From contig OZ210885.1 in NCBI GenBank assembly GCA_964658305.1, forward strand, positions 1,116,001-1,180,000: a stretch of 64,000 bases of DNA. The letters are read 5' to 3'. A program made the position numbers and the translations under genes. Shown here piece after piece: positions 5,079-37,899 of this stretch. Below the pieces are notes generated by a model. It saw only the letters and a list, made by a program, of their open reading frames with translations. It was not told the DNA's origin and ran no database searches. Origin of the DNA: Leptogorgia sarmentosa. Its lineage: Eukaryota. Position 1 is the stretch's first letter. Every line of letters begins with the position of its first letter.

Positions 5079-5952
5079 GGTAGATTTCCTGTTGAAGTTA
5101 TTGCATTTTATTCCTATCTGGATGTAAACAATTTCGTGTTTAAAATAAACACAATACAACTGCTCAACCGCAATGATTCTTTGTGTATTTAGCTGATGTT
5201 TTTTTTACATTGGAACTAAATCACATCGACCAAAAGGTGATAATTGGTGATCTCAATTTCACTACAGAAACTGGACAGTCAAAAGTGGGCATATCGGGTA
5301 CCTGTCGGTTTTTTCTGACCAATGACAATTCACAAATTTAAAATTCCGCTAATTGTTTGAGATATTTGGGAGCAAGACATGGTTTTCGACTTATCGCCGC
5401 CCACAAAATATATTGAACGCAAAGATGATCAACAAAAAATATATATTTTACAAAATTGATGTCCAACAACATTTTGTCTGTTTACAGAACAAAACAAAAT
5501 CTTGAGCAACCAGCAGTTCAACATTTCTTATGACTCATTTCAATACCTCAAAATCATTTTACACTTCAACCCCGGGCACCAAGTATGGTAAGTAATTACA
5601 TGCAGAGGTCTGTTGTGCCCACTTTTTTTACTTGATGCGTGCATCTGATTGGATGACGACTAAATTCGGAAAATCTCGAAAAGAAGTTCCAGAAAAACTC
5701 CTAAAGAAAGGTTTCCTTCGGGATTTTCCGAATTTTGTCAGCCAATACCTAATATACATTCTCAACTCAAGTAGTACATCAAGTTCTTGGAGTTTAGTTG
5801 ATTTAAGTTGAGAAGATCGATAGTTGCATTCTTGGTTAGTGAATCGAAACAAGCGAGGGGTTGCAGCATGTAAGTTTTCCTAGTTTTAACAATGTTAGGT
5901 CGATTGTAACCAATGCAATGTTATCTTGACGTGACCAGACCACATCGAAATA

Positions 5953-12913: not shown

Positions 12914-15900
12914 AATTATCACTCTTTGTTTTGGGCCCACAGTTGTCACTCGATATGAAAATATTTACCTTTTATAGTCGAGAACTTCCAAGGGCCAAAT
13001 TGATTCAGTGTATTGCAGGTCTAAAAATGCCCAGGCATCGCCCTTTTTAATGGTGACACACACATCAGACATAAAAGATTGTTCTCACAGTCATATGAAC
13101 ATTAAATTTTTATTTTAACACAAATTAATACATTAATACATTAATACACATCATGAAAAATTATACCAACATTCTACATATTATCGAGCCTAGTTTCAGT
13201 ATATCTGGCTTTAAAATATTATATAGTTAAATGAAAATATCTAAGCTAATGATTACATCATCAACGTTTCTCATAATGGAGATTGGACTGGAGTACTAAA
13301 ATGGCGACAGCAAACCAAGAAGTAGAAACACATGCACGCTAATTTCTAATTTTCAGAACTGAAAAAATAATGCTCTTTCCAAGTCGTTACGTTTTGGCTA
13401 TTAATGTTGAATCGTTTTTGCAAGTATATAACATTAATTCTAAATGTTTTTGAAATCAATCAAGAAGCAATTCTAATAACTAAGTATATTTACCTACATT
13501 GGAGAGAAATATTGGAGAGAAATTTTGGAAAAAAGACACTTCGAGTTTCCTAAGGCATGAAAATTCACACAATCTGAAAGAATCAAGATAAGAGCGATAC
13601 CATCTGCTTCAACTGCTTGAAAACGCCGTTTTGAATGTCTCTTCTTTCTTCCATCCACGTAGTTTCTTTCAAGAGTAGTGGAATTAATAATCCTCGCAAA
13701 CTATATGTGGTGTCTGCCAGAAGTTTAACCATCTTGTCGAATGACATGAATACCATTATACCCGTACGTGTGGCTCAACTTTATTTGGAACGAAGTGACT
13801 GCATGGAAATGATCCATGTTTACATCGAGATTAAACTTTGTACCATGGAAGTAAAGATAGTTCTCGAACAGATATCTGGAGCGTGAGTCTGATTCGATTT
13901 CAGGTTCAATTTTCTGTAATTATCCGCATATTACAATGCTTCTGTTCGTTGAAGGATGATGTTATATACTCCATTCCTGTTGTCCGCTGACACAATCAGA
14001 TGTACACATGGAGCAGCTGTCATAACGGTTATCGACTGGAATCGATCATTGATTGTAGACATATAGGTATATATGTAGACATATAGGTATATAGGATGAT
14101 ATAATATTGTTTTTCAATCACTGGTAAAATATCCACAGAGAATGTTTCCAATACAAAGTAAGGAATGGTCATTGACATAACATCTCGCAGATGATACGAA
14201 TGCTATGTTCCATTAAAATATGTTCTGGACTTCAACTTTCATCGGTTTCGACAAAAAATTGCGCCAATCTCGCCCGTTTTCTTGTATATTATGTACAATC
14301 AACTCAGCCATTATCCTTTTGATGCCATAGTTATCATGCAACGATATCAAATGTTCGTTGGAAACTTTGGAATGAATATTAATCCATCAGGTATTTTAGT
14401 GTTATCTGGAAGGTGACTCTTTCATTTGTACTGAAGGTATCCTCTTTATTTCAAACGTGCTTTTCCGTTCTTTCTACAGTCAGAAACATTGTACAGTTTT
14501 TGCATAGATCAGTGTCTGCACTGATTTTAGCAGTTGATCCTGGATGTTCATGTTTTAATACAGTATCATATGATTTCAAGATACGCGACAACATCTCGTA
14601 ACGTTACCGTTGTTTTCATGTTCAATGCATGATGGATAGTGCTGGAATGGATTCGACGACACAGAATAGTTTACAATTTGACCAATTTGAAGCCGTTTTG
14701 CTCTTATTTGATTCAGTCAGATGTTTTCCAAAGTTCCGTTTTCGTTCTTACGTTCTTCTTACACAAATATATGTAAATATGTTCCGAATATACATTTCAG
14801 AAGTTGTAATCTAGGCATGCAATCTATACATTATGTAACTATAGTACTTTACAAATTATTAGTATCCTTTGTTTCACAATTATTTTTTCTTCCGTTTTAA
14901 TACTCCTTTTAGATAATTACGTCATTTGGCTTGGGAACCTCAACCTGTGTTATTTACTAAGCGAGGTTATCCCGTACTTGTGACGAAATTATTGAAAAGG
15001 TGTATTTCTTTATTACAGACAGTTTTTTGCTTTTGTTCTCAAATATTTTGCAATCAACATGTACAGCAGCGCAAAAGTTAGCTATTAATTCAAACTTTCC
15101 AGTATTATATAAACCGTCAGGTTTATAGCATTCAATATATTATTGTTCTCATATCAGAGACCGGTTGTATAAAAACGCAGTTAAACTTGGCTATCGTTAT
15201 TGTGAAAAAGTTTAGCCAATCAGAAACGCGTATTTTGGAGTTAACTACGCTTTAACTAGGGAACGTGTAATTAAAACGTAGTTAAGAGTTTTTTACAACT
15301 GGTGCCATGCAGTTCGTCAATCCGTCTTAAGCGTTTATCTCAGTCATTGGATTTGAATTTAATAGTTTTGAAATTAACTCGAAAGTTCCTTCCGAGTTCG
15401 AAATCCAACCGCAGAAACAATAAAGATGGCCATGAATCACATTTTGCATGGCTGTCCTTGATTTATTAAAAATGATGAAATATTTTTTTGTATCGAGAAG
15501 AACTTCAAATAAAGAATTAAATTGCAGCCTTCGGTCTCGTTTATACTATTAATTTTTGTGATAATTTCTCGTTGAAAATTAATCATGTTTAAAAATTCAT
15601 CTACCTGGTTCTCGTCAAGATCAAAGTGTTTTTTGTTGTTGTTTCAATGCTACGAAAAAACGAAACTCACTTTTGAAATTTGAGCTATTTCCGACAATTA
15701 ACCGTAAACTGCTTAACTAACAAAATTTCTTTCAGTAGGAAAATTATAAAACTTGTCTAGCAACACTTCTGGCGTGCACTTTGGAGTTCGGAACAGCAAA
15801 ATATTTTCTTTAACCAGTTACCTGACAATTAGATCATGTCCTCTTCTACATTACATGTCATACCTGAAACTAAAAAAACTGTCCAACATAATAAAGAATG

Positions 15901-18900
15901 AATGCAAAAGGGGCAAAAGCGATGCTGATTAAGTCGTGACCTGGATTGCAGCAGGAGGGAAATTTTTTTCAAAATTGTGACCGCTCCCCTGTTCAAACTC
16001 TTTTTGCTTACTTTTTTGTAGGATACATTTCCTCGGGAAATTTTTCAAAATTATGGAGATGGTGGAGTGGCTTTGGGGTGTAATTGTAACACGCATCTTG
16101 AATCATAATTTGAAGATCATCGATCATCATAACAACACATAACAAACACAAAGATAAAATGAGAACTATTACAACACTCGTGCTGTAGTCATGATTTTCA
16201 TGGGTTCCCCCTTTGCTAACGTTAGCTGCTAGATGTAATCTACTAGATGTAATATATATCCCGTACCACATCCCTAATGTGACGATCGTTTTTGTTGAAA
16301 GAACAATTACCTATTCTAGATTTCTAGTAACTTTTTAACTTCAATTGTTCTGGCATATTTATTTATTGAAATACATCAGGAAAAATGAAGCCATATTTAA
16401 CGTAATAACTATACTATTACGAATATACCCTATATTTACGATAAGTCGGTAGATGATAACTGTAAACCTGTAAAACGGGTCAATAATTGTGCTCCCATTA
16501 CTACAGTAGTTCCTGAATGTTACATGCGAGGCAAGATTACTTTAATTATCCCAAAATTTTCTGACCGGTTAAGCCCAACACAGACAATGTTTTGTTTCCG
16601 ACACACGGAAATTGGGACTGGGACATCACCTACATCTAAACACGTTAAAATTTCACCACGTCTCGCGTTGACAAAATATATCATTTGATTAGTTGAACCA
16701 CAAATTAAGTTCGCCTCATCAAAATATTTCAAGTCAGTACAGTGCCCATAAACAGAGACCCGAGCCAACATACTTGTCGACACAATGTCAAAGGTAAAGA
16801 TTTCGTCCAAATCAAAGCAGGATATTGCTAATGTATTTCCTTCGGGTGAAAACTCTGCATTTTGTATTGCTGATACTGAGGATCCTAATGCTTGGGAAAA
16901 CAAATTTGTCCAGGCATCTATCGTGTTTCCATCCTTCCACAGACAAATCCCACGATTCCCGTCCGTTAGGACATGGTAATTGATGCTGCATGCGCCCACT
17001 GAGCTCGAGTTAAACAAATAACTTTGTTTGCGAAAAGACATTTTATGTAGTATTTGTCTGGTCAAAACATTAAAAAAGACAACACGTTCTTCGGCAAATT
17101 GACACGCAATAACTTCATCCGACACTGACAGGCATTTGGTCGTGCCAACCAATTCGCCAAAGGATGAAAGCAGTTGGGTAATACCACTGTCCCAGAACTC
17201 TGGAGCAAATGGATGATGCGATCCATACAAAATTATAACACCACCTTTCACAACTACGAGTTGATGTATGTTTCTTGGTGGTAAAGAGTTTGAACATTTT
17301 CCCTGAAGTGTGAAAACAGTTAACATGTTAGTTGTTCTGTTGTTTACATAAACAAAATCGCCATCCGTAGAAATGCCCAAATCTGTTAAATAAAAGTCAT
17401 TAGGTGCCAACTCCTTTGCAAGCATCAAGACAGGCACACTAAAAACGCGCAAGACATTTGTAAAACATGAGAAGACCAAGACAGACTTATTGCCGAGTAA
17501 GATATACCTCGTTATTGCCATGCGGCAAGTAATCAGTGAAGGATCAACCGATTCTTTTCTTATTTTAGACAACAAAGACTGTCCTGGATTTTGCAAGAAA
17601 CGTTGTAATTCATCAGAAGAGTCCAAATTACCTGGAAGAGCTATACTACCCAGAGAACCCAAATCACCTGACAAAATGAGATCATGACTTATACGGCGCA
17701 AGGAGTTGTGAATACGACAGAGCCAAGAATTTTCTTCAAAAGTAGACACAATTTCGACGCGAACCTGGCAACTAACTTCCTTCCAATCAAGTTCGTAATT
17801 ATTCGATAAATCGTAAACACTCACTAAGTTTTCACTATCTGTAGTGCCCAAAAAAATACCGCTAGCTGTAAAAGACAAAGAGGATAGCGTGTTGCACGAG
17901 AGGCATCTTTGCTTAATGCCGCTAGAAATGTCCCAAACGATTAAATGACCCTCGTAATATGTAGCCATTTTGCTACCATCCGGAGAAAAACAAGAATCGG
18001 TGAACGCTGAACTGCCCTGATCACACTGAAATGGCCCTTTTGTGAAAGTTCCAGCCAAAGTTAGCACTTCGTCAAGTCTGCCGGGCAATATCAAGTCTCC
18101 ACGAGGGTGGAAAACAATGCAGTGTGGTAATGTACAATAATAAAATTCACCAAAAATAGGAAAGGTAACTTCCACTGTGTAATCTTGAATTTTCCACTCA
18201 GACATACCTGTTTCTAGCGAAAAGAGCTCAATCCCTCCCTGTACGTAACAACAGAGAACGAACTCGTGCTTAGGAGAAACATCAATACCTCTTATTTGGC
18301 CAGAAAGATTACAGCTTAATTCAAGAGCATTATTTGGTCCATCTTCCTTATTTAACCGGAAATAAAAAAGATCCTTGTAACGTGTTTCAAGCAACTGTGT
18401 TGCTTTCGAAGAAAGTGGTTCTCCCCCCTCGTTAACGACATTTTGCAAGAAGTTTTGCGGATACTGTTTCAAAAAGAATACAAAGTTTCTGATCAGAAAA
18501 CATAATTTCCCCACTACAGATTTCGTGTTGTGAGAGAAATGTTTGGAAATTTCAGGACTCATGAGACATTTAAGATTATCCCCGGCAAGATTCGCATCGA
18601 CATAAACACTTGCAAACACAACTTCCAAATCCGTAAAATAATCACATACAAAACTTTCAAATTCCCCTTTATCTTTCAATCCCTTCAGCATATGTGGTAT
18701 GCAGTATTTTATTGCATACTTGATGCCAGAAACAGCGAGACTTTCTTTACTAACACCGTTTTCTTTCACGTCATTCAACTTTTTTACACATAGATCAAAA
18801 AGAATCCGATTACCATATTGCACATCTACAGGGAAATTGTGCTTAGCGTTGTCGACAAGCCAATCTCTTACCGATTTATGAAAGAACGAAAGAGATTTGT

Positions 18901-20650
18901 CTTCATGAATCACAAGAAGTGATGAAAGAATATTAATGGCTTGTGTTGTCTTCCGTTTGGCGTCTGCAGGATTCTCAAAACCGAAAACAGTTGTAGCAAA
19001 CACCTCTGGTAGTGATTCTTTAGCAACTGCAAGAGCGCATAAGAAGGACAAAAATTTTCCCTCCGAAATTTCCAAGACTTTTAATTCCCGTTCCAATCTT
19101 TGCAAATAATTGGGGTAATGCTCCTCGATGCCTTTTGGAAAACGGCCAATTCTTTCCATTGAATACTCGCACTGATAAATCTCAGTAAGGAAAAATGCGT
19201 AAAGCATCAGACCGTCGGAAGTTTTGGCCAAGCTATCCAAAAGATCCTGCGAGATTTCTGGAATTTTTTCCCGTAGCACGAGTTTCAGATCATCCAGATT
19301 TCGTTGGTCGTCAGGTTCAATATACAAAGGGTTTAGTTTAATAAACCTACCTAGAATACTATTCACTGGCCTTGTCGTTATTACAAAACGAATATATGAA
19401 GGAAGTTTGTGCAAGTGAATTGAGATCAAATTGGCAAAGTCTTGCCTTCCTTGGTACTCGCTTTCATCAACAGCGTCCAGCACAATCATAATATGCTTTC
19501 CAGGATTCTCAACGTGGGAAAGTGGTTCCTTTAGAAGAAGAGAAAATAGCCCTTCAATATTCTGCTCATTTAAAGATTTTCCTACAATCCCGGAAAGCTT
19601 CTCGACCAGAGCTTCTTTGTACGCTGGCAAAACTTTACAGAGATGCCAAGCTAAAGACTGCAGGAAAATTTTTGGATCGTTGTAGTGAGTGTTATTCCAC
19701 TGAAAGAAATGGGATGCACCAACGTGCTCGGCAAAGCGTTTACAAATAACAGCCGCAATTATAGATTTACCCATACCAGCATTACCGGTAATGACAAATA
19801 CACGATTTTCTGAAGTTTCATCATTAAACCAGTTCGAAACCTGTTCAAATACCCATTCTCGAGTACCCTGAGTGAATTTGGAGTTATATAGATCAATCTC
19901 TCTCTGAAAATCACACCAGTTAAGGATTGTTTTTAGGATATCACATCGAGATTCCGTCTGATTCCTAACCAAGACATTCACGCCATCTTTGACCTCATCC
20001 AAAACCATCATTATTTTGTTATCACTTTCATTCCACTCTTTCAAAATGCGACTCACTTCCTCTTCCCCACATTCTTCATTTTCTAATCTGTCTATTTCCT
20101 TCTGATCTATTCCCAACCGAACTAATGGTGGACTTATTTCTGCCCAGAACTTCTTAAAATCTGCCTCACTTACAGCTGTCTTAGGAATGTGACCAAAACG
20201 TTCATTACGAAACAGCTTAATGCGAACAATGTCAGCTTCATTACTATGATCCGATACATTTGGCATTTTGTCCCATCCCGTAAGTGGTGGAGACAACCCA
20301 CAAATGTTTCGTAAAAGAACACAAAGTAAAGTGATGTCAAACTTATTAATGTCTGGTTTCTCAGGTGGGGTGGGGCATAACGTATCCAACTGTTTTTGAT
20401 TGATTATTTTGCTCCTGTTTAGGTTTAAAAGCATATAGCGATGACTGTGTAATACAACCTGTAAATCTCCTGGGAGAATTTTTCGATGAATGGCTTTCCT
20501 CAATGCCTCTGTTCCCCCATCCAAGATCAGCCTCATCAACTTCGTGCCATTGGTTGTCTCAGTTGAGCTGTCCAGCGTCGCCATGATCTCCTGCAAGATT
20601 TTTTTGTAAAGAATTGGATTGCTTGTAGATTTCGCTATGCGCGTAGCTTG
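12914..20650. repeat. Segmental duplication copy A (paralog of ~30015-37770)
   Basis: Continuous alignable sequence from aattatcactctttgtttt to gcgtagcttg at an offset of ~17.1 kb. Confidence 0.95.
16520..20584 (-). CDS. HEPN (DZIP3/hRUL138-like)-NACHT/STAND NTPase-WD40-like repeat protein, paralog A; 1354 aa from MATLD, single large exon with a splice acceptor at 20590
   Basis: Uninterrupted ORF. N-terminal NGTKLMRLILDGGTEALR...FDITLLCVLLRNICGLSPP..GWD..ADIVRIKLFRNERFGH (HEPN Rx4-6H); FTQGTREWVFEQV; Walker A GNAGMGKS (19763-19786); Walker B MIVLDAVDE; FFHKSVRDWL; propeller-type repeats (IDVSPK, CFSPDG..IVWD, EFSPEG). Confidence 0.9.
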   Translation of the reverse strand: MATLDSSTETTNGTKLMRLILDGGTEALRKAIHRKILPGDLQVVLHSHRYMLLNLNRSKIINQKQLDTLCPTPPEKPDINKFDITLLCVLLRNICGLSPPLTGWDKMPNVSDHSNEADIVRIKLFRNERFGHIPKTAVSEADFKKFWAEISPPLVRLGIDQKEIDRLENEECGEEEVSRILKEWNESDNKIMMVLDEVKDGVNVLVRNQTESRCDILKTILNWCDFQREIDLYNSKFTQGTREWVFEQVSNWFNDETSENRVFVITGNAGMGKSIIAAVICKRFAEHVGASHFFQWNNTHYNDPKIFLQSLAWHLCKVLPAYKEALVEKLSGIVGKSLNEQNIEGLFSLLLKEPLSHVENPGKHIMIVLDAVDESEYQGRQDFANLISIHLHKLPSYIRFVITTRPVNSILGRFIKLNPLYIEPDDQRNLDDLKLVLREKIPEISQDLLDSLAKTSDGLMLYAFFLTEIYQCEYSMERIGRFPKGIEEHYPNYLQRLERELKVLEISEGKFLSFLCALAVAKESLPEVFATTVFGFENPADAKRKTTQAINILSSLLVIHEDKSLSFFHKSVRDWLVDNAKHNFPVDVQYGNRILFDLCVKKLNDVKENGVSKESLAVSGIKYAIKYCIPHMLKGLKDKGEFESFVCDYFTDLEVVFASVYVDANLAGDNLKCLMSPEISKHFSHNTKSVVGKLCFLIRNFVFFLKQYPQNFLQNVVNEGGEPLSSKATQLLETRYKDLFYFRLNKEDGPNNALELSCNLSGQIRGIDVSPKHEFVLCCYVQGGIELFSLETGMSEWKIQDYTVEVTFPIFGEFYYCTLPHCIVFHPRGDLILPGRLDEVLTLAGTFTKGPFQCDQGSSAFTDSCFSPDGSKMATYYEGHLIVWDISSGIKQRCLSCNTLSSLSFTASGIFLGTTDSENLVSVYDLSNNYELDWKEVSCQVRVEIVSTFEENSWLCRIHNSLRRISHDLILSGDLGSLGSIALPGNLDSSDELQRFLQNPGQSLLSKIRKESVDPSLITCRMAITRYILLGNKSVLVFSCFTNVLRVFSVPVLMLAKELAPNDFYLTDLGISTDGDFVYVNNRTTNMLTVFTLQGKCSNSLPPRNIHQLVVVKGGVIILYGSHHPFAPEFWDSGITQLLSSFGELVGTTKCLSVSDEVIACQFAEERVVFFNVLTRQILHKMSFRKQSYLFNSSSVGACSINYHVLTDGNRGICLWKDGNTIDAWTNLFSQALGSSVSAIQNAEFSPEGNTLAISCFDLDEIFTFDIVSTSMLARVSVYGHCTDLKYFDEANLICGSTNQMIYFVNARRGEILTCLDVGDVPVPISVCRKQNIVCVGLNRSENFGIIKVILPRM

Positions 20651-22689
20651 AATTTCATGCAGGCACCGCGGGGCGTAAATATCGAATATGGCCTGCAGTG
20701 TTTCATGGAAATCAGGTCTATGAACTTCTGGACAGATTTGAATCTTAGTCAAAAACTATCAAAAACTATGAAAACTATGCAATGAATTTTGTAGTTGTGA
20801 TATAATGGTTCGTAGTTTCTGCTCGCGTTTAATTTAGCGGCGAAAAACGATTTGCCCTTCTTCGAGAGTCAAAGCCGTCAGAGTTGTAAAAGGGTAGTTG
20901 TAGGGACAAATTCTCTCCCGGAAAATATTGAAAACTAAAACCTCCGAAATGCCATGTGTCCAATCAATTACTACAGACTACAACATTTCACTGGAAGTGT
21001 TATCACTGATCCCCATCCCTCCCCCCCCCCCCCCCCACATTTACGAATTACGATCCTGAAATTCATGTGGGTCTGATCAGATCCAGCTAACAAACTAAGT
21101 TCAAGAGAAAATTTTGACTAACTCGTGAATTAAAAAGTAAATTAGCTTCAAAACATTGTTCTACTCACTATAGCTAAACGATACATATACACGTAATACT
21201 AACGTCATAACACGGAACTAATAGTTATCTCCGACGAAAGAAGTTGGTTGACTTGGTTCTAAACGTTGATTCCGTTTGTATCGCTTGGCCGTTTAGGTAT
21301 AGTGTGTAGAACATTTCCTGGTTTTTGATGTCGTCTTAAGAAACAAGCTGCAAGATTTTAATTTATTTATAAAGAAATGGTTTGATTTGTAAATCAATGT
21401 AAATTTACTTGATTATATTCTGCAAAACGTTAAGACTATCCCATTTCTTGCTGTGAATTAAACTGTGAAGTTTATTTATTCATTTATAATAGATTCATGA
21501 GCGACAATATTTCAATGTAAAATGTAGGCCAGAAGTAGACGTACACGGCGGAAAGGAATAGTCGAATATATTAGTGAAATTTTTGCTATAAATAAGTAAA
21601 GTTGTCAAGATCGAGGCAATATTGATACGGACTCATAGATTTAAGCCAACGCGATTTTTGTCGCCGCATGTACGTGTGAAACTCCTATTTTCCGGTCACA
21701 CGGTTTTCGGCAGCGGCGTCATTTCCACGCGCCACGCGAAAGTTTTTAATAAGCAACACACTTAGAATTAATATGAAAAGTATAGGAAAAACGCTGTTTC
21801 GAAGGGAAAATCAGGTTTTATTATGAACCTATGTTGCCGATGATAAAGGTTGGTCAATATTTATTGAGAATAGAGGTCAGCTGTGTATGATTTTCAATAT
21901 ACGTTCTGCTAGGCTTGACGATGGTTTTTTTTCAATATTTTTACTCAACCCAGTTTCATGCTCACACTGGTCACTGTATTTATCAGTTTATCTGCCTACA
22001 TGGTTGTATTTTTTAATAGTATTACATAATAACAAAACAGCCATCTGCCTGTGAAGAATTTTTCCTGAGCGGCATGGATTTTATTAACCTACTTAGTATT
22101 TACCAAACTGAAACTTGTAAAAGTACAACGCAAATGACTGCTTTTAAAACACTCCATAATATATAATATTTTGTGGGTTTCAACTTTTAAAATACAAGAG
22201 TTTTTAATACTGTCGCCAATTTTTTAGATGTGAATTTTCAAATGTTCGTAAAAGCGTACAGAAATTAGCGAGAAATAGGAATCGCTTCGCAACAAAACCA
22301 GAAGGAATTTCGTAAAATGGATCACATAGCTAAGTATATTTCAAGGACAGAAAATGTTTATTCGTTTACAAAATCTTAAACAACCTAACTACAATAACCT
22401 TGTTTTTTTAATTCAAATGCTTATTCCAACTAAGAAAGACAACTTTTTACAAGTGACTGAATGTCGCGATAAAAAGTCGACCGGTGAAAATCGCGTCGTG
22501 TGCGCCTGTATGTGTGTGTACTGTATCTACTACAATTACTTCATTATTAAGTTCGTTTCACGAATTACGAATTTCTTAATAATGGTCATGTATAAAGACT
22601 TTAGTTAATTCTAATAACGAAAGCCAGAGGGATAAATTCTAAGAAATATTCTGAAGACAGCGAATTGACCGCTTTATCTACTTACATTG

Positions 22690-22960
22690 TCTTATCAGCA
22701 AGACTGGACATGAATGACATTTAACACAGAGAGTTTAAGAAATATCAATGTTCAGTCATCTTATGTTGATATTTCAATAAGTGTGATTTAAATTGTCCAA
22801 TGGTATTTATTATCATCCGTTCCACTGTTGTGTGGTAGGAGACTACTGAACACTCAGGGTGTCTACTCTTAGTGACATGATTACTTGATTTAAAAGCGAT
22901 GTTTTGATCGTTTCTCAGCATTCTCAACAATGTTCAAACTCTTATTGAAGAGCTCATTCA
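22690..22960 (-). pseudogene. Possible decayed retroelement integrase (rve) fragment; duplicated at ~27010-27280
   Basis: LRNDQNIAFKS...SYHTTVERMIINTIGQFKSHLLKY loosely resembles the SDNG..F.S...YHP..NG.VER.N.T.K..L.K integrase core; weak. Confidence 0.3.
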
Positions 22961-24129
22961 GCGATGACGAAATACAGGGTGCACAGCGTGAGTAGCCTAG
23001 CTGGAATTTTATCTGGAGCCAACGATGGCTTTGTTTACATCGAATGGGAAAATGTTTTTAGGTTAAATGAATAGAAGATCATTCACCAGTTTTGCGATGT
23101 CAATAAAAGTGACATTTGTATCACGTCCTATACAGTTTTTTGTAGTATACACCTTTTTGGAAAACATGCGTATATATACGTAAACAATGCTTCCTGAAAC
23201 GGTGTATTGCAGCAATAATACTAAATAATATATTCATTAAATATGATTACGCCAGATGTATACTATCTACTTTAAATACAAATTACGCCAGATATATACT
23301 ATTAACGTTAGTGAGGTCAATAATAAAAAAAGAGAAAAAGCCATGGATTGCTCGAAGATTCACAAATGTTCCAATTAAACATCCACAACCTGATGACTTT
23401 AACTTAAAACTGTATCGATCTATACACAAAACAGGCAAATCACAAAAGAACTTTGTTAACCATTACGAATGTTATATTCTTTTGTGTCGTCAACGGTACA
23501 TTGCCGTACGCGTTTTATATCAAGGATGTCGTTAAAGAGAATTCTATAACTGGCTCATTCAATTATGTACTTAGATTGCATTTCATCTTCATACACTAAT
23601 ATAGCGACAAGACGTTACCTTTCTTCCTTTACAACACCACTACATTGGTAGACAGTTAACTTCAGGATAATCAGTGTTCAATTGATTGAAAACCTTTGTC
23701 AGTTTATGTAAGATTCAAGTTTTTGAAAATGGCCAGCTTCGAGTGAACATCTAATACGAAATCACTTCAACTGTGAACTGAAAAACTAGATTCATATACA
23801 ATGCATCTGTGAACTGAAAAGTACTTTGCATTTCAAATTAGAAAACTCGACACAAAAACATGCGTGGGATTGAAAAACGAAAACAAACCAAAACATGTAT
23901 GGTATCCATAATAATTATTAAAAAGTTATAATCAAATTGTGAGTCATAATCCTGGCCAAAAATATCGACGACACTTTGCTTCGAAACAAAATAAAGAACT
24001 CTCCCCTTTACCGCCGCTGATTAATGTTGAATGGCATGTTAAACACATTTATCACAGGCTCAACTTTGTTTTGGCGACCACAGGGGTCACGTATAGTCGG
24101 GAACTTCAAGGGGCCAAATTGATAATGCT

Positions 24130-24430
24130 TTTTACCAGGAATGGTTTTACCAGGAATGCATGGTTTTACCAGGAATGGTTTTACCAGGAATGCATGGTTT
24201 TACCAGGAATGATTTTACCAGGAATGCATGGTTTTACCAGGAATGGTTTTACCAGGAATGCATGGTTTTACCGGGAATGGTTTTACCAGGAATGCATGGT
24301 TTTACCAGGAATGGTTTCACCAGGAATGCATGGTTTTACCAGGAATGGTTTCACCAGGAATGCATGGTTTTACCAGGAATGGTTTCACCAGGAATGCATG
24401 GTTTTACTAGGAATGGTTTTAACCAGGAAG
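24130..24430. repeat. Composite minisatellite of mostly alternating 15-bp (ggttttaccaggaat) and 19-bp (gcatggttttaccaggaat) units
   Basis: Directly visible; it produces the spurious repetitive ORFs at 23939-24568. Confidence 0.95.
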
Positions 24431-25029
24431 TGTCACCCTTTATCGTTACCCACGCTGAAGAGATTGTACCAAAATTGTTCACACAGTCATTTGAACGTTA
24501 AATTGTCATTTCAATACAAATCAATATACGTCATAAAAAGTTATACCAACATTCTACATATTATCTAGCCTATAGTACAATTGAAGCCATGAGTATATCT
24601 AACTTAATGATTATATCGTCGACGTTTCTCATCATAATTGTGAAAGGAGTAGCTACTAAAATGGCAACAACAAACCAAGAGGGGGAAACACACCTTAATT
24701 TCTATTCAAATTTGCATATTTTCACAAAAAAATCATGCTCTTTCTAGCTACATTTTGGTTATAAATGTTAAATCGTTTTTGCAAGTATATAATTGCATTG
24801 GAATAAGCTTCCAAATCATAAGACCATTAATTGCATGGATTTTTACAAAGTAGTTAATAGTTTTAGACAATTTGGATTGGTTTAAATTAGAATATAAACG
24901 TTTTTAATAAATATAAGGATTTTATGAGGAAGTACGTAGCTAAATATTTTTAAAATGACATTACTAATAATCATAAAACTTTAATTTGTGTTTGTATGTT
25001 TGTGGGCGTATATACTTATATATATATTT

Positions 25030-26467: not shown

Positions 26468-28952
26468 CGTAATACTAACTTCATAACACGGAACTAATAT
26501 AAAGTTATCTCTGACGAAGGAATTTGGTTCTAAACGTTGATCCGGTTTGTATCGCTTAGGTATAGTGTGTTGAACATTTCCTGGTTTTTGATGTCGTTAA
26601 GAAACAAGCTGCAAGATTTTTATTTATAAAGAATCAGTTTGCTTTGTAAATCAAACGCCTCCAATGCAAATTTACTTGATTATATTCTGCAAAACTTTAC
26701 GGCTATCCCATTGCATGCTGTGCAATAGATTCATGAGCGACAATATCTGAATGTAAATGTAGGCTACAAGTAGACGAATACGGAAGGAATAGTCAAATAT
26801 TAGTGAAATTATTGCCATAAATAAACAAAGTTGTCAAGATCGAGGCTATATATTGATACGGACAACTCATAGCTTTAAGCCAGGTACACACGTTCATATG
26901 AATTTCTTAATAATGGTCATTTAAACTTTAGTTAATTCTAATAACGAAAGCCAGAGGGATAAATTCTAAGAAATATTCTGAAGACAGCGAATTGACCGCT
27001 TTATCTACTTACATTGTCTTATCAGCAAGACTGGACATGAATGACATTTAACACAGAGAGTTTAAGAAACATCAATGTTCAGTCATCTTATGTTAATATT
27101 TCAATAAGTGTGATTTAAATTGTCCAATGGTATTTATTATCATCCGTTCCACTGTTGTGTGGTGGGAGACTACTGAACACTCAGGGTGTCTACTCTTAGT
27201 GACATGATTACTTGATTTAAAAGCGATGTTTTGATCGTTTCTCAGCATTCTCAACAATGTTCAAACTCTTATTGAAGAGCTCATTCAGCGATGACGAAAT
27301 ACAGGGTGCACAGCGTGAGTAGCCTAGCTGGAATTTTATCTGGAGCCAACGATGGCTTTGTTTACATCGAACGGGAAAATGTTTTTAGGTTAAATGAATA
27401 GAAGATCATTCACCAGTTTTGCGATGTCAATAAAAGTGACATTTTGTATCACGTCCTATACAGGTTTTTGTAGTATACACCTTTTTGGAAAACATGCGTA
27501 AAAGGCAATAGATTGCTTGAAGAGTCACAAATGTTCCAAAACATCCGCAACCTGATGACTTTAACTATAAACTTAAAACTGTATCGATCTATACACAAAA
27601 CAGGCAAATCACAACATCGAATCAAAGAACTGTGTTAGCTAGTACGAATTAATGTTATATTCTTTTGTGTCGTCGAAAACATTGTCGGTACAAAAACATG
27701 TCGAGAGTTGCCTCCAAATTTGTAGTCCTCGACAAAATCACAATTGGCTGAGAGTGAGGTTTTTTAAATGTTTATATTTCGAACAACAAAATTAATATAG
27801 CTACTAAAATTATAAATTGATTCTCACTACGTATTATGTTCCCAACGGATAGCGCACGGGCTGTAGAATCTCTTATCTCACGGTTCGTTGCCACACTCTC
27901 TCACTCTAACTGTCACTCTGTCATGCAATAATTATCTAAAAATGTTTATTATCTTATCTGTCAGTTCCCGACAAAACATTGCCGTACGTGTTTTATATCA
28001 AGGAAGTTGCTAAAGAGAAAGCTTACCTTTCTTCCTTTACAACACCACTACATTGGTAGACAATTAACTTCAGGATAATCAGTGTTCAATTGATTGAAAA
28101 CCTTTGTCAGTTTATGTAAGATTCAAGTTTTTGACATTTGACAATGGCAGCTTCGAGTGAACATCTAATACGAAATAACTTCTAGCTTCAACTGTGAAAT
28201 GAAAAGTATTTTGCATTTCAAATTAGAAAACTCGACACAAAAACATGCGTGGGATTGAAAAACGAAAACAAACCAAAACATGTATAGTATCCATAATTAA
28301 AAAGTTATAGTCAAATTGTAAGTCATAATCCTGGCCAAAAATATCGACGACACTTTGCTTCGAAACAAAATAAAGAACTCTCCCGTTTACCGCCGCTGAT
28401 TAATGTTGAATGCATGGCATGTTAAACACATTTAATTATCACAGGCTCAACTTTGTTTTGGCGACCACAGGGGTCACGTATAGTCGGAAACTTCAAGAGG
28501 CCAAATTGATAATGCTTTTTACCAGGAATTGCTTGGCCTTACCAGGAATGGTTTTTACCAGGAATGGTTTTTACCAGGAAGTGTCACCCTTTATCGTTAC
28601 CCACGCTGAAGAGATTGTACCAAAATTGTTCACACAGTCATTTGAACGTTAAATTGTCATTTCAATACAAATCAATACACGTCACAAAAAATTATACCAA
28701 CATTCTACATATTATCCAGCCTAGTACAATTGAAGCCATGAGTATATCTAACTTAATGATTATAATTATCGTCGACGTTTCTCATCATAATTGTGAAAGG
28801 AGTAGCTACTAAAATGGCAACAACAAACCAAGAGGCGGAAACACACGTTAATTTCTATTCAAATTTGCATATTTTCACAAAAAAATCATGCTCTTTCTAG
28901 CTACATTTTGGCTATAAATGTTAGATCGCTTTTGCAAGTATATAATTGCATT
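26468..28952. repeat. Second segmental duplication, copy b
   Basis: Paralog of 21192-24800. Confidence 0.9.
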
Positions 28953-30014: not shown

Positions 30015-33000
30015 AATTATCACTCTTTGTTTTTGGCCCACAGTTGTCACTCGATATGAAAATTTTACCTTTTATAGTCGAGAACTTCCAAGGGCCAAAT
30101 TGATTCAGTGTATTGCAGGTCTAAAACTGCCCAGGCATCGCCCTTTTTAATGGTGACACACACAGAAGACATAAAAGATTGTTCTCACAGTCATATGAAG
30201 ATTAGATTTTTATTTTAACACAATTTAATACACATCATGAAAAATTATACCAACATTCTACATATTATCGAGCCTAGTTTCAGTATATCTGGCTTTAAAA
30301 TATTATATAGTTCAATGAAAATATCTAAGCTAATGATTACATCATCAACGTTTCTCATAATGGAGATTGGACTGGAGTACTAAAATGGCGACAGCAAACC
30401 AAGAAGTAGAAACACATGCACGCTAATTTCTCATTTTTAGAACTGAAAACATAATGCTCTTTCCAAGTCGTTACGTTTTGGCTATTAATATATTTTCGCA
30501 AGTATATAACATTAATTCTGAAAGTTTATGAAATCAATCAAGAAGCAATTCATTTTGTTTTTCGCTAATAAAACGATAAAAAACATCTATTATGATTTTA
30601 TCATGGCCTCTTTGCCGCCATTTTAGATAAAGAATTGCTATTGTATAACTAAGTAGCTATATTTACCTAAATTGGAGAGAAATATTGGAGAGAAATTTTG
30701 GAAAAAAGACACTTCGAGTTTCCTATTGCATGAAAATTCACACAATCTGAAAGAATCAAGATAAGAGCGATACCATCTGCTTCAACTGCGTCAACACGCC
30801 GTGTTGAATGTCTCTTCTTTCTTCCATCACGTAGTTTCAAAGTTTATTTCACTTTCCAGTTCATTCAAGAGTAGTGGAATTAATAATCCTCGCAAACTAT
30901 ATGTGGTGTCTGACAGAAGTTCGACCATCTCATCGAATGACATGAATACCATTATGGGTATAATGGAACGAATTCGAAGTGACTGCATGGAAATGTTCCA
31001 TGTTTACATCGAGATTAAACTTTGTACCATGGAAGTAGATATGGTTCTCGCACAGATATCTAGAGCGTGAGTTTGAGTCGATCAGTTTCAGTTTCAATTT
31101 TCTGTAATTATGCACATATTACAATGCTTCCGTTGGTAGAAGGGTGATATTATATATCCCATTTCTGTTGTCCGCTGACACAATCAGATGTACACATGGA
31201 GCAGCTGTCATAACGGTTATCGAATGGAATCGATCATTGATTGCAGACATATAGGTATATATGTAGACATATAGATATATAGGATGATATAATATTGTTT
31301 TTCAATCACTGGTAAAATATCCACAGAGAATGTTTCCAATACAAAGTAAGGAATGGTCACTTCTTCAACTTTCTTCTGTTTCGACAAAAAATTGCTCCAA
31401 TCTCGCACTTTTTCTTGTATATTATGTACAATCAACCCAGCCATTATCCTTTTGATGCCATAGTTATCATGTAACGATATCAAATGTTCGTTAGAATGGA
31501 TATTAATCCATCAGGTATTTTAGTCTTATCTGGAAGGTGACTCTTTCATTTGTACAAGATGTCCTCTTTATTTCAAACGCGCTTTTCCGCTCTTTCTACA
31601 GTTAGAAACGTTGTACAGTTTTTGCACAGATCAGTGTCTGCACTGATTTTAGCAGTTGATCCTGGATGTTCATGTTTTGATACAGTATTATATGATTTAA
31701 GATACGCGACAACATCTCGTAACGTTAACGTTGTTTTCTAGTTCATGTTCAATGCATATTCGTACGGAAGTTCTTGCATAATGATAGTTCTGAAATTGAT
31801 TCGACGACACAGAATAGTTCACAATTTGACCAATTTGAAGCCGTTTTGCTCTTATTTGATTCAGTCAGATGTTTTGCAAAGTTTCGTTTTCGTTCTTACG
31901 TTCTTCGTGCACAAATATATGTAAATATGTTCCGAATATACATTTCAGAAGTTGTAAACTAGGCATGCAATCTATACATTATGTAACTAGTAATTTACAA
32001 ATTATTAGTATCGTTTGTTTCACAATTATTTTTTCTTCCGTTTTAATACTCCTTTTAGATAATTACGTCATTTGGCTTGGGAACCTCAACCTGTGTTATT
32101 TACTAAGCGAGGTTATCCCGTACTTGTGACGTAATTATTGAAAAGGTGTATTTCATTATTATAGACAGTTTTTGTTTTTGTTCTCAAATATTTTGCAATC
32201 AACACGTACAACAGGGCAAAAGTTATTAATTCAAACTTTCTGATATTATATAAACCGTCAGGTTTATAGCATTCAATATATTATATAGTTCTCATATCAG
32301 AGACCGGTTGTATAAAAACGCACTTGAGCTTGGCTATCGTTATTGTGAAAAAGTTTGACCAATCAGAAACACGTATTTTGGAGTTAACTACGTTTTAACT
32401 AGGAAACGGGTAATTAAAACGTAGTTAAGAGTTTTATACAACTGGTGCCATGCACAGTTCGTCAATCCGTTTTTAGCGTGTATCTCAGTCATTGGAGTTG
32501 AATTTAGTTCTGTAATTAGCTCGAAAGTTCCTTCCGAGTTTCATTAAAGATGATAAAAGATTTCTTTTGTATCGAGAAGAACTTCAAATAAAGAATTAAA
32601 TTGCAGCCTTCCTCGCTGATACTTTATTAATTTTTGTGTGATAATTTCTCGTTGAAAATCATGTTTAAAAATTCATCTAGCTGGTTCTCGTCAAGATCAA
32701 AATGTTTTTTGTTGTTGTTTCAATGCTACGAATAAACGAAACTCACTTCAAATATTTTTTTTTGCAATTTGAGCTATTTTCGAGAATTAACCGTGGCCAC
32801 GTGTCAGTTTGGTAAACTGCTTAACTAACAAAACTTATTTCAGTAGGAAAATTATAAAACTTGTCTAAACATTTTTGTGGAGCAACGCTTCTGACGTGCA
32901 CTTCGGAGTTCGGAACAGCAAAATATTTTCTTTAACCAGTTACCTGACAATTAGATCACGTCCCACTTCTACAAGTACATGTCATACCTGAAACTAAAAA

Positions 33001-36000
33001 AAACTGTCCAACATAATAAAGAATGAATGCAAAAGGAGCAAAAGCGATGCTGATTAAGTCGTGACCTGGATTGCAGCAGGAGGGAAAATTTTTTCAAAAT
33101 TGTGACCGCTCCCCTGCATGTTCAAACTCTTTTTGCTTACTTTTTTGTAGGATACATTTCCTTGGGAAATTTTTCAGAAATTCTTTGGGGTGTAATTGTA
33201 ACACGCATCTTGAATCATAATTTGACGATCATCGATCATCATAACAACACATAACAAACACAAAGATAAGATGACAAGACATGAGAACTATAAGTACAAC
33301 ACTCGTGCTGTAGTCATGATTTTCATGGGTCCCCCCTCTGCCAACATTAGCTACTAGATGTAATATATATCCCGTACCACATCCCTAATGTGACGATCGT
33401 TTTTGTTGAAAGAACAATACCTATTCTAGATTTCTACTAATTTTTTTAACTTCAATTGTTCTGGCATATTTATTTATTGAAATACATCAGGAAAGTGAAG
33501 CCATATTTTAACGTAATAACTATACTATTACGAATATACCCTATATTTACGATAGGTCGGTAGATAATAACTGTAAACCTGTAAAACGGGTCAATAATAC
33601 TGCTCCCATTACGACAGTAGTTCCTGAATGTTACATGCGAGGCAGGATAACTTTAACCATCTCAAAATTTTCTGAAAGGTTAAGCCCAACACAGATAATG
33701 TTTTGTTTCTGGCACACGGAAATTGGGTTTGGTAGATCACCAACATCTAAACATGTTAAAATTTCGCCACGTCTCGCGTTAACAAAATATATCATCTGAT
33801 TCCTTGAGCCACAAATCAAGTTCGCCTCATCAAAATATTTCAACTCAGTACAGTCCCCATAAACAGAGACCCGAGCCAACATACTTGTCGACACAACGTC
33901 AAAGATAAAGATTTCGTCAAATTCAGTGCTGGATATTGCTAATGTATTTCCTTCGGGAGAAAACTCTACACTGTCTATTGGAGATGCGGTTCTTAATGCT
34001 ATAGCTTGGGAAAACAAATTCGTCCAGGCATCTATCGTGTTTCCATCCTTCCACAGACAAATCTCACGATTCCCGTACGTTAGTACATGGTAATTGATGC
34101 TGCATGCGTACACAAAGAACTTACGGTACGCGTGTTCGTCAAAAGACATTTCTTGTAGTATTTGTTTGGTCAAAACATTAAAAAAGACAACACGTTCTTC
34201 GTTAAATACACACGCAATAACTTCATCCGACACTGAGAAGCATTTGGTCGTGCCAACCAATTCGTCAAAACATGAAAGCCGTTGGGTAATACCACTGTCC
34301 CAAAACTCTGGAGTAGATGACTGATGCGATCGATACAAAATTACAACACCACCTTTAACAACTACGAGTTCATGTATGTTTCTTTGTTGTAAAGAGTTTG
34401 AACATTTTCCCTGAAGTGTGAAAACAGTTAACATGTTGGTTGTTGTGTTGTTTACATAAACAAAATCGCCATCCGTAGATATTCCCAAAGATGTGAAATA
34501 ACAGTCATTACATGCCAGTTCCTTTGCGTTCGCATGCATCAAGCCAGGCACACTAAAAACGCGCAAGACATTTGTTGCACATGAGAAGACCAAGATAGAT
34601 TTATTGCCGAGTAAGATGTACCTGGTTGTTGATTCGTGGTAAGACAACCCTGAATGTTGAAACGATTCTTTTCTTATTTTAGACAACAAAGACTGTCCTG
34701 GATTTTGCAAGAAACGTTGAAATTCAGCAGAAGAGTCCAAATTACCTGGCAGAGCTTTACTATACAGAGAACCCAAATCATCTGACAAAATGAGATCATG
34801 ACTTATACGGCACAAGGAGTTGTCAATACGACAAAGCCAAGAATTTGTTTCAAAAGTGCACACTATTTCAACCCGAGACTGGCAACTAACTTGCTTCCAA
34901 TGAAGTTCGTAATTATTCGATACATCGTAAACACTCACTAAGTTTTCACTATCTGTAGTGCCCAAAAAATTACCGCTAGCTGTAAAAGACAAAGAGGATA
35001 GCGTGTTGCAGGAGAGGTATCTTTGCTTAATGCCGCTAGAAATGTCCCAAACGATTAAATGACCCTCGTAATATGTAGCCATTTTGCTACCATCCGGAGA
35101 AAAACAAGAATCGGTGAACGCAGAACTGCCCTGATCACACTGAAATGGCCCTTTTGTGAAAGTTCCAGCCAAAATTAGCACTTCGTCAAGTCTGCCGGGC
35201 AATATCAAGTGTCCACGAGGGTGGAAAACAATGCAGTGTGGTAACGTACAATAATTACCTTTCTCAACAGGAAAAGGAAAGGTAACTTCCACTGTGTAAT
35301 CTTGAATTTTCCACTCAGACATACCTGTTTCTAGCGAAAAGAGCTCAATACCTCCCTCTGAGTAACAACAGACAACGAACTCGTGCTTAGGAGAAACATC
35401 AATACCTCTTATTAAGCCAGAAAGATTACAGCTTAATTCAAGAGCATTATTTGGTTCATCTTCCTTATTTAACCGGAAATAAATAAGATCCTTGTAACGT
35501 GTTTCAAGCAACTGTGTTGCTTTCGAAGAAAGTGGTTCTCCCCCCTCGTTAACGACATTTTGCAAAAAGGTTTGGGGATACTGTTTCAAAAAGAATACAT
35601 ACTTTTTGATCAGAAAACATAATTTCCCCACTATAGATTTCGTATTGTCAGAGAAATATTTGGAAATCTCAGGACTCATGAGACATTTAAGATTATCCAC
35701 GGTAAGATTCACATCGACATAAACACTTGCAAACACAACTTCCAAATTCGTAAAATAATCACATACAAAACTTTCAAATTCCCCTTTATCTTTCAATCCT
35801 TTCAGCATATGTGGTATGCAGTATTTTATTGCATACTTGACGCCAGAAACAGCGAGACTTTCTTTACTAACACCGTTTTCCTTCACGTCATTCAACTTTT
35901 CTACACATAGATCAAAAAGATTCCGATGACCATTTTGCACATCTACAGCGAAATTGTGCTCAGCGTTGTCGACAAGCCAATCTCTTACCGATTTATGAAA

Positions 36001-37770
36001 GAACGAAAGAGATTTGTCTTCATGAATCACAAGAAGTGATGAAAGAATATTAATGGCTTGTGTTGTCTTTCGTTTGGAGTCTGCAGGATTCTCAAAACGG
36101 AAAACAGTTGTAGCAAACACCTCTGGTAGTGATTCTTTAGCAACTGCAAGAGCGCTTAAGAAGAACAAAAACTTTTCCTCCGAAATTTCCAAGACTTTTA
36201 ATTCGCGTTCCAATCTTTGAAAATAAATGTGGTAATGCTTCTCGATGCCTTTTGGAAAACGGTCAAATCTTTCCATCGAATACTCGCACTGATAAATCTC
36301 AGTTAGGAAAAATGCGTAAAGCATCAGACCGTCGGAAATTTCGGCCAAGCTATCCAAAAGATCCTGCGAGATTTCTGGATTTTTTTCCCGTAGCACGAGT
36401 TTCAGATCATGCATATTTCGCTGGTCGTCACGTTCAATATACAAAGGGTTTAGTTCAACAAACTTATCTAGAAGATTTTTGACTGGCCTTGTCGTTATTA
36501 CAAAACGAATATAAGAAGGAAGTTTGTGCAAGTGAATTGAGATCAAATTGGCAAAGTCTTGCCTTCCTTGATACTCGCTTTCATCAACAGCGTCCAGCAC
36601 AATCATAATATGCTTTCCAGGATTCTCAACGCGGGAAAGTGGTTCCTTTAGAAGAAGTGAAAATAGCCCTTCAATATTCTGCTCATTTAAAGATTTTCCT
36701 ACATTCCCGGAAAGCTTCTCGACCAGAGCTTCTTTGTACGCTGGCAATACTTTACAGAGATGCCAAGCCAAAGACTGCAGGAAAATTTTTGGATCGTTGT
36801 AGTGAGTGTTATTCCACTGAAAGAAATGGGATGCACCAACGTGCTCGGCAAAGCGTTTACAAATAACAGCCGCAATTATAGATTTACCCATACCAGCATT
36901 ACCGGTAATGACAAATACACGATTTTGTGAAGTTTCATCATTAAACCAGTTCGAAACCTGTTCAAATACCCATTCTCGAGTACCCTGAGTGAATTTGGCG
37001 TTATATAAATCGATCTCTCTCTGAAAATCACAGCAGTTAAGGATTTTTTTTAGGATATCACATCGAGATTCCGTGTGATTCCTAACCAAGACATTCACGC
37101 CATCTTTGACCTCATCCAAAACCGTCATTATTTTGTCATCACTTTCAGTCCACTCTTTCAAAATTCGACTCACTTCCTCTTCCCCACATTCTTCATTTTC
37201 TAGTCTATCTATTTCCTTCTGATCTATTCCCAACCGAACTAATGGTGGACTTATTTCTGCCCAGAACTTCTTAAAATCTGCCTCACTTACAGCTGTCTTA
37301 GGAATGTGACCAAAACGTTCATTACGAAAGAGCTTAATGCGAACAATGTCAGCTTCATTACTATGATCCGATACATTTGGCGTTTTGTCCCATCCCGTAG
37401 TAAGTGGTGGGGACAACCCACAAATGTTTCGTAAAAGAACACAAAGTAAAGTTATGTCGAACTTATTAATGTCTGGTTTCTCAGGTGGGGTGGGGTATAA
37501 CGTATCCCACTGTTTTTGATTGATTATTTTGCGCCGGTTTAGGTTTAAAAGCATATAGCGATGACTGTGTAATACAACCTGTAAATCTCCTGGGAGAATT
37601 TTTCGATGAATGGCGTTCCTCAATGCCTCTGTTCCCCCATCCAAGATCAGCCTCATCAACTTCGTGCCATTGGTTGTCTCAGTTGAGCTGTCCAGCGTCG
37701 CCATGATCTCCTGCAAGATTTTTTTGTAAAGAATTGGTGAGCTTGGTAAATAATGCATGTGCGTAGCTTG
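30015..37770. repeat. Segmental duplication copy B (paralog of 12914-20650)
   Basis: See copy A. Confidence 0.95.
33631..37710 (-). CDS. HEPN (DZIP3-like)-NACHT-WD40-like protein, paralog B, large terminal exon (internal ATG at 37704)
   Basis: Intact ORF with the same RNERFGH (37306-37326), GNAGMGKS and LDAVDE motifs as paralog A; acceptor tcttgcag|GAG ATC ATG. Confidence 0.9.
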   Translation of the reverse strand, partial: EIMATLDSSTETTNGTKLMRLILDGGTEALRNAIHRKILPGDLQVVLHSHRYMLLNLNRRKIINQKQWDTLYPTPPEKPDINKFDITLLCVLLRNICGLSPPLTTGWDKTPNVSDHSNEADIVRIKLFRNERFGHIPKTAVSEADFKKFWAEISPPLVRLGIDQKEIDRLENEECGEEEVSRILKEWTESDDKIMTVLDEVKDGVNVLVRNHTESRCDILKKILNCCDFQREIDLYNAKFTQGTREWVFEQVSNWFNDETSQNRVFVITGNAGMGKSIIAAVICKRFAEHVGASHFFQWNNTHYNDPKIFLQSLAWHLCKVLPAYKEALVEKLSGNVGKSLNEQNIEGLFSLLLKEPLSRVENPGKHIMIVLDAVDESEYQGRQDFANLISIHLHKLPSYIRFVITTRPVKNLLDKFVELNPLYIERDDQRNMHDLKLVLREKNPEISQDLLDSLAEISDGLMLYAFFLTEIYQCEYSMERFDRFPKGIEKHYHIYFQRLERELKVLEISEEKFLFFLSALAVAKESLPEVFATTVFRFENPADSKRKTTQAINILSSLLVIHEDKSLSFFHKSVRDWLVDNAEHNFAVDVQNGHRNLFDLCVEKLNDVKENGVSKESLAVSGVKYAIKYCIPHMLKGLKDKGEFESFVCDYFTNLEVVFASVYVDVNLTVDNLKCLMSPEISKYFSDNTKSIVGKLCFLIKKYVFFLKQYPQTFLQNVVNEGGEPLSSKATQLLETRYKDLIYFRLNKEDEPNNALELSCNLSGLIRGIDVSPKHEFVVCCYSEGGIELFSLETGMSEWKIQDYTVEVTFPFPVEKGNYCTLPHCIVFHPRGHLILPGRLDEVLILAGTFTKGPFQCDQGSSAFTDSCFSPDGSKMATYYEGHLIVWDISSGIKQRYLSCNTLSSLSFTASGNFLGTTDSENLVSVYDVSNNYELHWKQVSCQSRVEIVCTFETNSWLCRIDNSLCRISHDLILSDDLGSLYSKALPGNLDSSAEFQRFLQNPGQSLLSKIRKESFQHSGLSYHESTTRYILLGNKSILVFSCATNVLRVFSVPGLMHANAKELACNDCYFTSLGISTDGDFVYVNNTTTNMLTVFTLQGKCSNSLQQRNIHELVVVKGGVVILYRSHQSSTPEFWDSGITQRLSCFDELVGTTKCFSVSDEVIACVFNEERVVFFNVLTKQILQEMSFDEHAYRKFFVYACSINYHVLTYGNREICLWKDGNTIDAWTNLFSQAIALRTASPIDSVEFSPEGNTLAISSTEFDEIFIFDVVSTSMLARVSVYGDCTELKYFDEANLICGSRNQMIYFVNARRGEILTCLDVGDLPNPISVCQKQNIICVGLNLSENFEMVKVILPRM

Positions 37771-37899
37771 ACAGCTATTTCATGTTAGTCTGATCAGATT
37801 GATCTAATGTTCAAGGGAAAAAAAGAAAAACTTTTTCGCATTAAGTAAATACTTACGAAACTCGTAAAATACCAATTATTATGACAATTATATATGTGA

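Follow-up and report, generated by a model that had tools for sequence, protein, structure and literature searches.

Divergence of two tandem HEPN-NACHT-WD40 genes from a soft coral focuses on predicted top-face loops of a double propeller

A tandem gene pair and its domain architecture

The 64-kb stretch of Leptogorgia sarmentosa DNA analyzed here (contig OZ210885.1, positions 1,116,001 to 1,180,000; henceforth, the window) contains two long genes, A and B, that are 96% identical in their effector region and differ in discrete patches toward the C terminus. The locus thus raises the question of what these patches are and whether selection produced them. The reading that we favor, with a probability of roughly 0.7, is that A and B represent tandem duplicates of an anthozoan HEPN-NACHT-WD40 gene and differ chiefly in predicted top-face propeller loops, likely via selection for new ligand specificities. 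The genes and the duplicated block containing them are as follows.

16520..20584, minus strand: paralog A, an uninterrupted ORF of 1354 aa with the architecture HEPN-NACHT-WH-double WD40 propeller
33631..37704, minus strand: paralog B, an uninterrupted ORF of 1357 aa, 88% identical to A
12914..20659, no strand assigned: duplicated block, copy 1, comprising gene A with about 75 bases of 5' flank and 3.6 kb of 3' flank
30015..37784, no strand assigned: duplicated block, copy 2, containing gene B

Contigs from public sequencing runs show both A-type and B-type letters, including the 6-base insertion of B, indicating that the differences are not sequencing errors. Homology between the copies ends at 20659 and 37784, about 75 bases 5' of the start codons; hence, the upstream DNAs of A and B are unrelated and might represent new promoters or, alternatively, an intron that has acquired insertions. 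The contigs of three public runs fade close to the start codon and were not counted as expression. A second direct duplication, noncoding and situated between the two genes, spans 21192-24799 and 26468-28952 and includes a 34-base tandem repeat at 24130-24429. Elsewhere in the window, on the minus strand, are an exon-sized frame matching Cupin_8 (JmjC-like; 4626-5204), a frame for a rhodopsin-family 7TM receptor (PF00001; 46660-47658) and a frame encoding a pair of ShK-like domains with a mucin-like tail, of a type typical of cnidarians (51416-52039). A PADLOC run on the sequence returned no match.

Domain and structure searches with A delineated the following regions.

20063..20473, minus strand: DZIP3-like HEPN domain, aa 38-174 (Pfam PF18738, E 8e-47)
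19370..19867, minus strand: NACHT/NPHP3_N NTPase domain, aa 240-405, with intact Walker A and B motifs
17420..18325, minus strand: propeller 1, aa 754-1055, with six clear blades and a helical insertion, from the secondary structure of the model
16523..17419, minus strand: propeller 2, aa 1056-1354, with seven blades and most of the variable sites

The HEPN domain of A carries an R-x5-H motif at 20189-20209 that is the same in B, and the NACHT region matches both PF05729 and PF24883 above cut-off. Pfam also places a winged helix at aa 544-594. The same scan of A gave no HET, CARD or LRR match, and NB-ARC was recovered only at an E value of 0.025, below cut-off. A search with the propeller part retrieved 146 relatives; the 120 listed are 37-56% identical, nearly all have the same domains, and Paramuricea clavata, an octocoral, is the sole species named among them. 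The HEPN and NTPase catalytic motifs are conserved throughout the family: a loose R-x4-6-H pattern is present in 101 of 107 full-length proteins and the Walker A GK[ST] in all 113 ungapped rows of an alignment of 122 sequences.

The propeller matches of A in Pfam are weak and lie below the curated cut-offs. However, an AlphaFold2 model of aa 230-1354 based on the 122-sequence alignment (mean pLDDT, 83) displays four-stranded blades, mostly with a pLDDT of 70-95, that match propeller structures, and we accordingly assign the C terminus to WD40 propellers. The strand pattern of the model consists of two linker strands and 13 clear blades, and its best match among solved structures is full-length Apaf-1 (E 2.6e-28; TM-score, 0.44; 13% identity). 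In Apaf-1, the linker contributes the last d-strand of each propeller (PMC5050015). The linker strands of A would similarly close the last blade of each propeller in the model, with both this correspondence and the loop faces being read from secondary structure rather than coordinates. The helical insertion of propeller 1 (17528-17639, approximately aa 983-1019 of A) seems to replace or interrupt its sixth blade and runs into the second of the variable patches described below.

Variable patches on a predicted propeller face

Codons that differ in the encoded amino acid number 8/200 in the HEPN region, 17/240 in the NACHT region, 35/330 in the helical region and 100/582 in the propellers; the contrast between the N-terminal part (60/770) and the propellers is strong (Fisher P = 1.6e-7). 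The original prediction had placed hypervariable patches in a single C-terminal propeller. The variability is indeed C terminal, but there are two propellers, with the excess lying mostly in the second (75/352 codons at aa 1001-1354 versus 25/230 at aa 771-1000). Likewise, the HEPN domain and core NACHT region, held to be nearly identical, are so across aa 1-400 but less so at aa 401-500, where 19/100 codons differ (dN, 0.087; dS, 0.077). A second cluster of replacements lies here, right behind the NTPase core (19085-19360, aa 409-500 of A), and might correspond to a surface touching the propellers in a closed state.

Within the repeat region, the clustering of replacements and the in-frame indels noted earlier are borne out: there are 35 adjacent replacement pairs against 17 expected, a value reached in none of 10,000 permutations, whereas synonymous-only differences are unclustered (P = 0.17-0.87). 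The propeller region accounts for four in-frame indels between A and B and the HEPN region for one, and both frames stay open despite them. All 10 of the peptides originally quoted were found in the translations of the two genes. The five patches, and a further variable loop absent from the earlier list, are given here.

18134..18163, minus strand: patch 1, aa 808-817, a long d-a loop before blade 2 of propeller 1, with a 3-base indel
17504..17554, minus strand: patch 2, aa 1011-1027, a loop before the last blade of propeller 1, with low model confidence
17201..17230, minus strand: additional variable b-c loop, aa 1119-1128
16988..17032, minus strand: patch 3, aa 1185-1199, a d-a loop before blade 4 of propeller 2, with a 6-base indel
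16847..16888, minus strand: patch 4, aa 1233-1246, a d-a loop before blade 5 of propeller 2, with a 3-base indel
16799..16819, minus strand: patch 5, aa 1256-1262, a b-c loop of blade 5 of propeller 2

For all blades, residues of the d-a and b-c loops, together with the adjoining strand ends, were assigned to the top face and those of the a-b and c-d loops to the bottom face. All five patches map to d-a or b-c loops and hence to the predicted top face, so that, by the secondary structure of the model, the variable residues occupy one surface, as had been anticipated, rather than being scattered. Changed codons amount to 54/189 on the top against 12/178 on the bottom (P = 3e-8), under a rule that was set after the patches were known and may therefore favor this result. 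The contrast is 38/101 versus 5/93 in the second propeller and 16/88 versus 7/85 in the first (P = 0.07). The bottom loops of WD40 folds are under structural constraint in any case, and in Apaf-1 the top faces line the cleft between the propellers. WD40 proteins usually bind their partners through the top face (PMC3419727), and cytochrome c sits between the propellers of Apaf-1 (PMC5050015).

This pattern extends to the family. Positions at which A and B differ have high entropy among the 120 relatives (2.01 versus 1.32 bits; P = 1e-11) and vary again in 49 disjoint close protein pairs, in which 0.25 of top-face sites and 0.11 of bottom-face sites differ. The top loops also vary in length: the loop of patch 1 occurs in 116 distinct versions in 122 sequences, with 17-32 residues, whereas two bottom segments are of constant length in 120/120 and 122/122 sequences. 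At the DNA level, 42 family loci were found, of which L001-L021 were translated and L022-L042, which matched part of the query, were left out. L003, L005, L009, L011, L016 and L019-L021 were kept out of the propeller tests on account of short longest frames or partial overlap; L010 was unpaired, and L006/L007 were too close to inform. An excess of top over bottom changes is seen in four of the five independent informative pairs. L006/L008, which share the fold, lack it (top, 40/188; bottom, 41/179), indicating that the contrast is not forced by the fold. The lineage comprising L006-L009 (46-50% identical to A) shows an omega of about 0.5 on every face without a top-face excess and is possibly a family member with a conserved ligand. 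In other samples, 26 of the 40 variant rows listed (72 in total) fall in top-face codons, which make up 43 of the 131 codons there, and 17 of these 40 carry a letter other than that of B.

Selection, relaxation and the history of the copies

The original prediction of diversifying selection proposed sliding-window dN/dS as its check, and by that measure it fares poorly: propeller-wide dN/dS between A and B is 0.81, dS is raised too, and 100-codon windows, ranging from 0.1 to 1.55, hold so few synonymous changes that they are uninformative on their own. It fares better when sites are treated as classes. Sites called hypervariable from the 120 relatives alone have a dN of 0.269 between A and B against a regional dS of 0.127 (P = 1e-4); the contrast is 1.92-fold (P = 0.003) once indel-near codons are removed, and P is 0.10 or 0.025 when one event is counted per changed codon. 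The same class in the N-terminal part has a ratio of 1.1, with no comparable excess. A pairwise comparison of M2a with M1a over the propellers gives a likelihood ratio (LR) of 37.3 (omega2 of about 12 at 10% of sites), falling to 9.7 (P = 0.008) when multibase changes are allowed and to a P value of 0.055 in the strictest pairwise test, which additionally drops indel-near codons; for the N-terminal part, the LR is 0. Sites with a high posterior are mostly on the top face (17/23, against 193/598 sites overall). In a five-sequence tree model with gap neighborhoods dropped, the LR is 34, or 15.6 with multibase changes (P = 4e-4); recombination can inflate such tree-based tests, and all codon models here are our own implementations applied to few sequences. 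Mixture models run on three of the five informative independent pairs gave P values of 0.004, 0.058 and 0.004 under single hits and 0.07-0.27, none of them significant, under multiple hits. On this basis, positive selection on a minority of loop sites is likely, if short of proven.

The most serious rival, which we nevertheless regard as unlikely, is that the top loops are merely unconstrained, with neutral drift and tolerance of indels producing the diversity and multibase mutations and misalignment mimicking selection. The top-class omega for A/B is 1.51 but drops to a nonsignificant 1.16 with multibase changes and to about 1.0 when measured against the dS of the class itself; in other DNA pairs it is 0.52-1.16, close to 1 in most. 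Together with the propeller dN/dS near 0.8 and the elevated dS, these values keep relaxation in contention, as do the shrinking of the signal under multihit models, the low model confidence in some loops and the 33 of 136 changed propeller codons with two or three differences. However, only 1 of 88 changed codons in the N-terminal part is of this kind, so multibase mutations are not general. Furthermore, the top-face dN (0.20-0.26) exceeds the divergence of the flanks (0.061) by a factor of 3-4, the five-sequence test survives multiple hits and gap removal, and mere freedom of the loops sits poorly with the absence of contrast in L006/L008.

The second rival concerns age. Unchanged codons up to aa 1000 show a synonymous divergence of 0.065, similar to that of the flanks, and those at aa 1001-1354 one of 0.149 (P = 0.002). 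The 3' part thus predates the duplication, an outcome expected if it was linked to variants maintained over a long time or had been imported from a different paralog. The relatives are themselves mosaic: among 111 near-full-length proteins, the nearest neighbor by NACHT is also that by the second propeller in 19, against 46 in an interleaved-column control, and the two disagree strongly in five of the six clear cases. Exchange of segments between paralogs is the likely explanation of this mosaic identity in the sequences. Swapping of near-identical repeats, as in HET-E, was considered and ruled out, since the blades are on average only 13% identical (maximum, 29%; 78 blade pairs), and no internal DNA repeat was found within A or B. 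Recombination into one copy of a 3' part from an older and more distant paralog, with structural constraint filtering its accumulated changes, could then generate the whole excess. Such an import probably adds to the divergence of A and B, but we consider it improbable as the full account: age scales dN and dS equally, yet the variable sites defined from the family exceed local dS in both segments (1.85-fold, P = 0.006, at aa 1001-1354; 2.29-fold, P = 0.016, at aa 771-1000), and the 64-kb window contains no donor copy or fragment and no additional member of the family.

That the pair forms a het-like allorecognition locus, with alleles deciding colony fusion or rejection, appears more doubtful still. 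The variable loops are the same as in HET-E, and further patch versions exist in other samples. However, in 10 clusters of at least 90% identity, variable columns are only slightly more frequent on the top face (161/1856) than on the bottom (113/1808; P = 0.006), in a test that the 90% cut-off biases downward and with contigs in which alleles and paralogs are inseparable. HEPN varies more than the top face in these clusters, and two pairs at 98-99% identity show no top-face excess. Most loop diversity thus lies between more distant copies, and with near-identical relatives varying so little at the top face, allorecognition is unsupported; a cytosolic sensor would also fit pathogens more simply. 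Of the two kinds of specificity originally suggested, pathogen targets are the likely one. In the 90% clusters of P0014, P0078, P0057 and P0025, the HEPN and NACHT domains vary more than the propellers, the opposite of A/B, which suggests N-terminal swaps under a fixed sensor. Finally, a misassembly that placed two alleles of a single locus in tandem is very improbable as the origin of A and B: a flank divergence of 6% is within the range of heterozygous marine invertebrates, but homology is limited to the 7.8-kb block with unlike sequence on both sides, one public run shows three versions across patches 3 and 5, which exceeds one diploid locus if it derives from a single animal, and the selection result would stand either way.

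Proposed function and comparison with known systems

Returning to selection for new ligand specificities, a hypervariable face would argue against one conserved ligand. HEPN RNases need dimerization, and the architecture suggests ligand-triggered oligomerization and effector activation by analogy with STAND sensors. By the precedent of Apaf-1, a ligand, likely a fast-changing microbial or viral protein, would bind between the two propellers and release autoinhibition, opening the protein; the freed NACHT domains would then oligomerize and gather the HEPN domains into a predicted active RNase whose substrate would be viral or cellular RNA. Degradation of such RNAs has been proposed for HEPN-NACHT fusions (PMC3710099, PMC9646362). 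Diversity in such a system would arise from the loop substitutions and in-frame indels observed here and likely from paralog segment exchange, to which the mosaic identity points. A more ambitious picture, which we offer tentatively and would not yet bet on, is that the germline of soft corals encodes a large set of sensors shaped like Apaf-1, whose antibody-like loops, roughly a dozen on two facing propellers, have been selected for diversity and shuffled from paralog to paralog. With each sensor tied directly to an RNase, this would be an animal resistosome that senses variable pathogen proteins and cuts RNA.

Coral NLR-like genes number in the hundreds, and the loops likely to determine specificity have now been mapped on one natural pair. 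The close likeness of this pair in the effector region, combined with its divergence at the sensor face, makes it amenable to the exchange of loops and to screens for ligands. The pair further suggests that diversification of WD40 sensors does not require near-identical repeats of the kind driving it in HET-E and that an animal NLR may engage in an arms race much as a plant or fungal receptor does.

The closest known systems are the DZIP3-like HEPN-NACHT(-WD40) NLR-like proteins of anthozoans, which share the domains and tandem expansion of A and B. HEPN is the commonest NACHT partner in these animals, and WD40 is a known C-terminal repeat (PMC8260672, PMC10236652); HEPN-NACHT expansions, WD40 ends and tandem duplication have all been described (PMC8260672, PMC10236652, PMC12314368). 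In their accessible portions, the papers on these proteins report domain counts only, without maps of variable or selected sites or an Apaf-1-like double propeller (PMC8260672, PMC10236652). A search of the literature, with subscription papers and supplements outside its scope, found no mapping of such sites in the anthozoan family, and the accessible part of a 2026 preprint on TeTIR-NACHT-WD40 proteins makes no mention of HEPN or corals (10.64898/2026.09.21.753143).

At the sensor face, the nearest parallel is with the Podospora HNWD proteins HET-D and HET-E, which likewise combine NACHT with WD40 and undergo exchange between family members (PMC1805685, PMC4986451). The selected residues of HET-E lie in the d-a loop and b-c turn, matching the variable loops of A and B (PMC1805685). 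To that extent the analogy drawn by the original prediction stands, but the mechanism differs: HET-E repeats are nearly identical (at least 85%) and are swapped as units (PMC1805685, PMC4986451), whereas A and B have dissimilar blades whose loops change length. The effectors are also different, HET in HET-E as opposed to HEPN in A and B. In plant NLRs, it is the LRRs that diversify. Like A and B, these receptors show tandem clusters, a variable sensor surface and paralog exchange (PMC4986451), but their sensor is an LRR rather than a propeller coupled to a predicted RNase effector. The Apaf-1/Dark apoptosome (PDB 3shf, 3sfz) has the same succession of NTPase, helical arm, two propellers and two linker strands as the model; however, Apaf-1 is a conserved gene that combines CARD with NB-ARC and has one self ligand, whereas the family of A and B is expanded and variable and carries NACHT and HEPN. 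The architecture is thus already known in corals, and what is added here is the mapping of variable, likely selected, loops on a predicted sensor face. In sum, A and B belong to a known coral family that is like HET-E at the sensor face and Apaf-1 shaped yet is a member of neither group.
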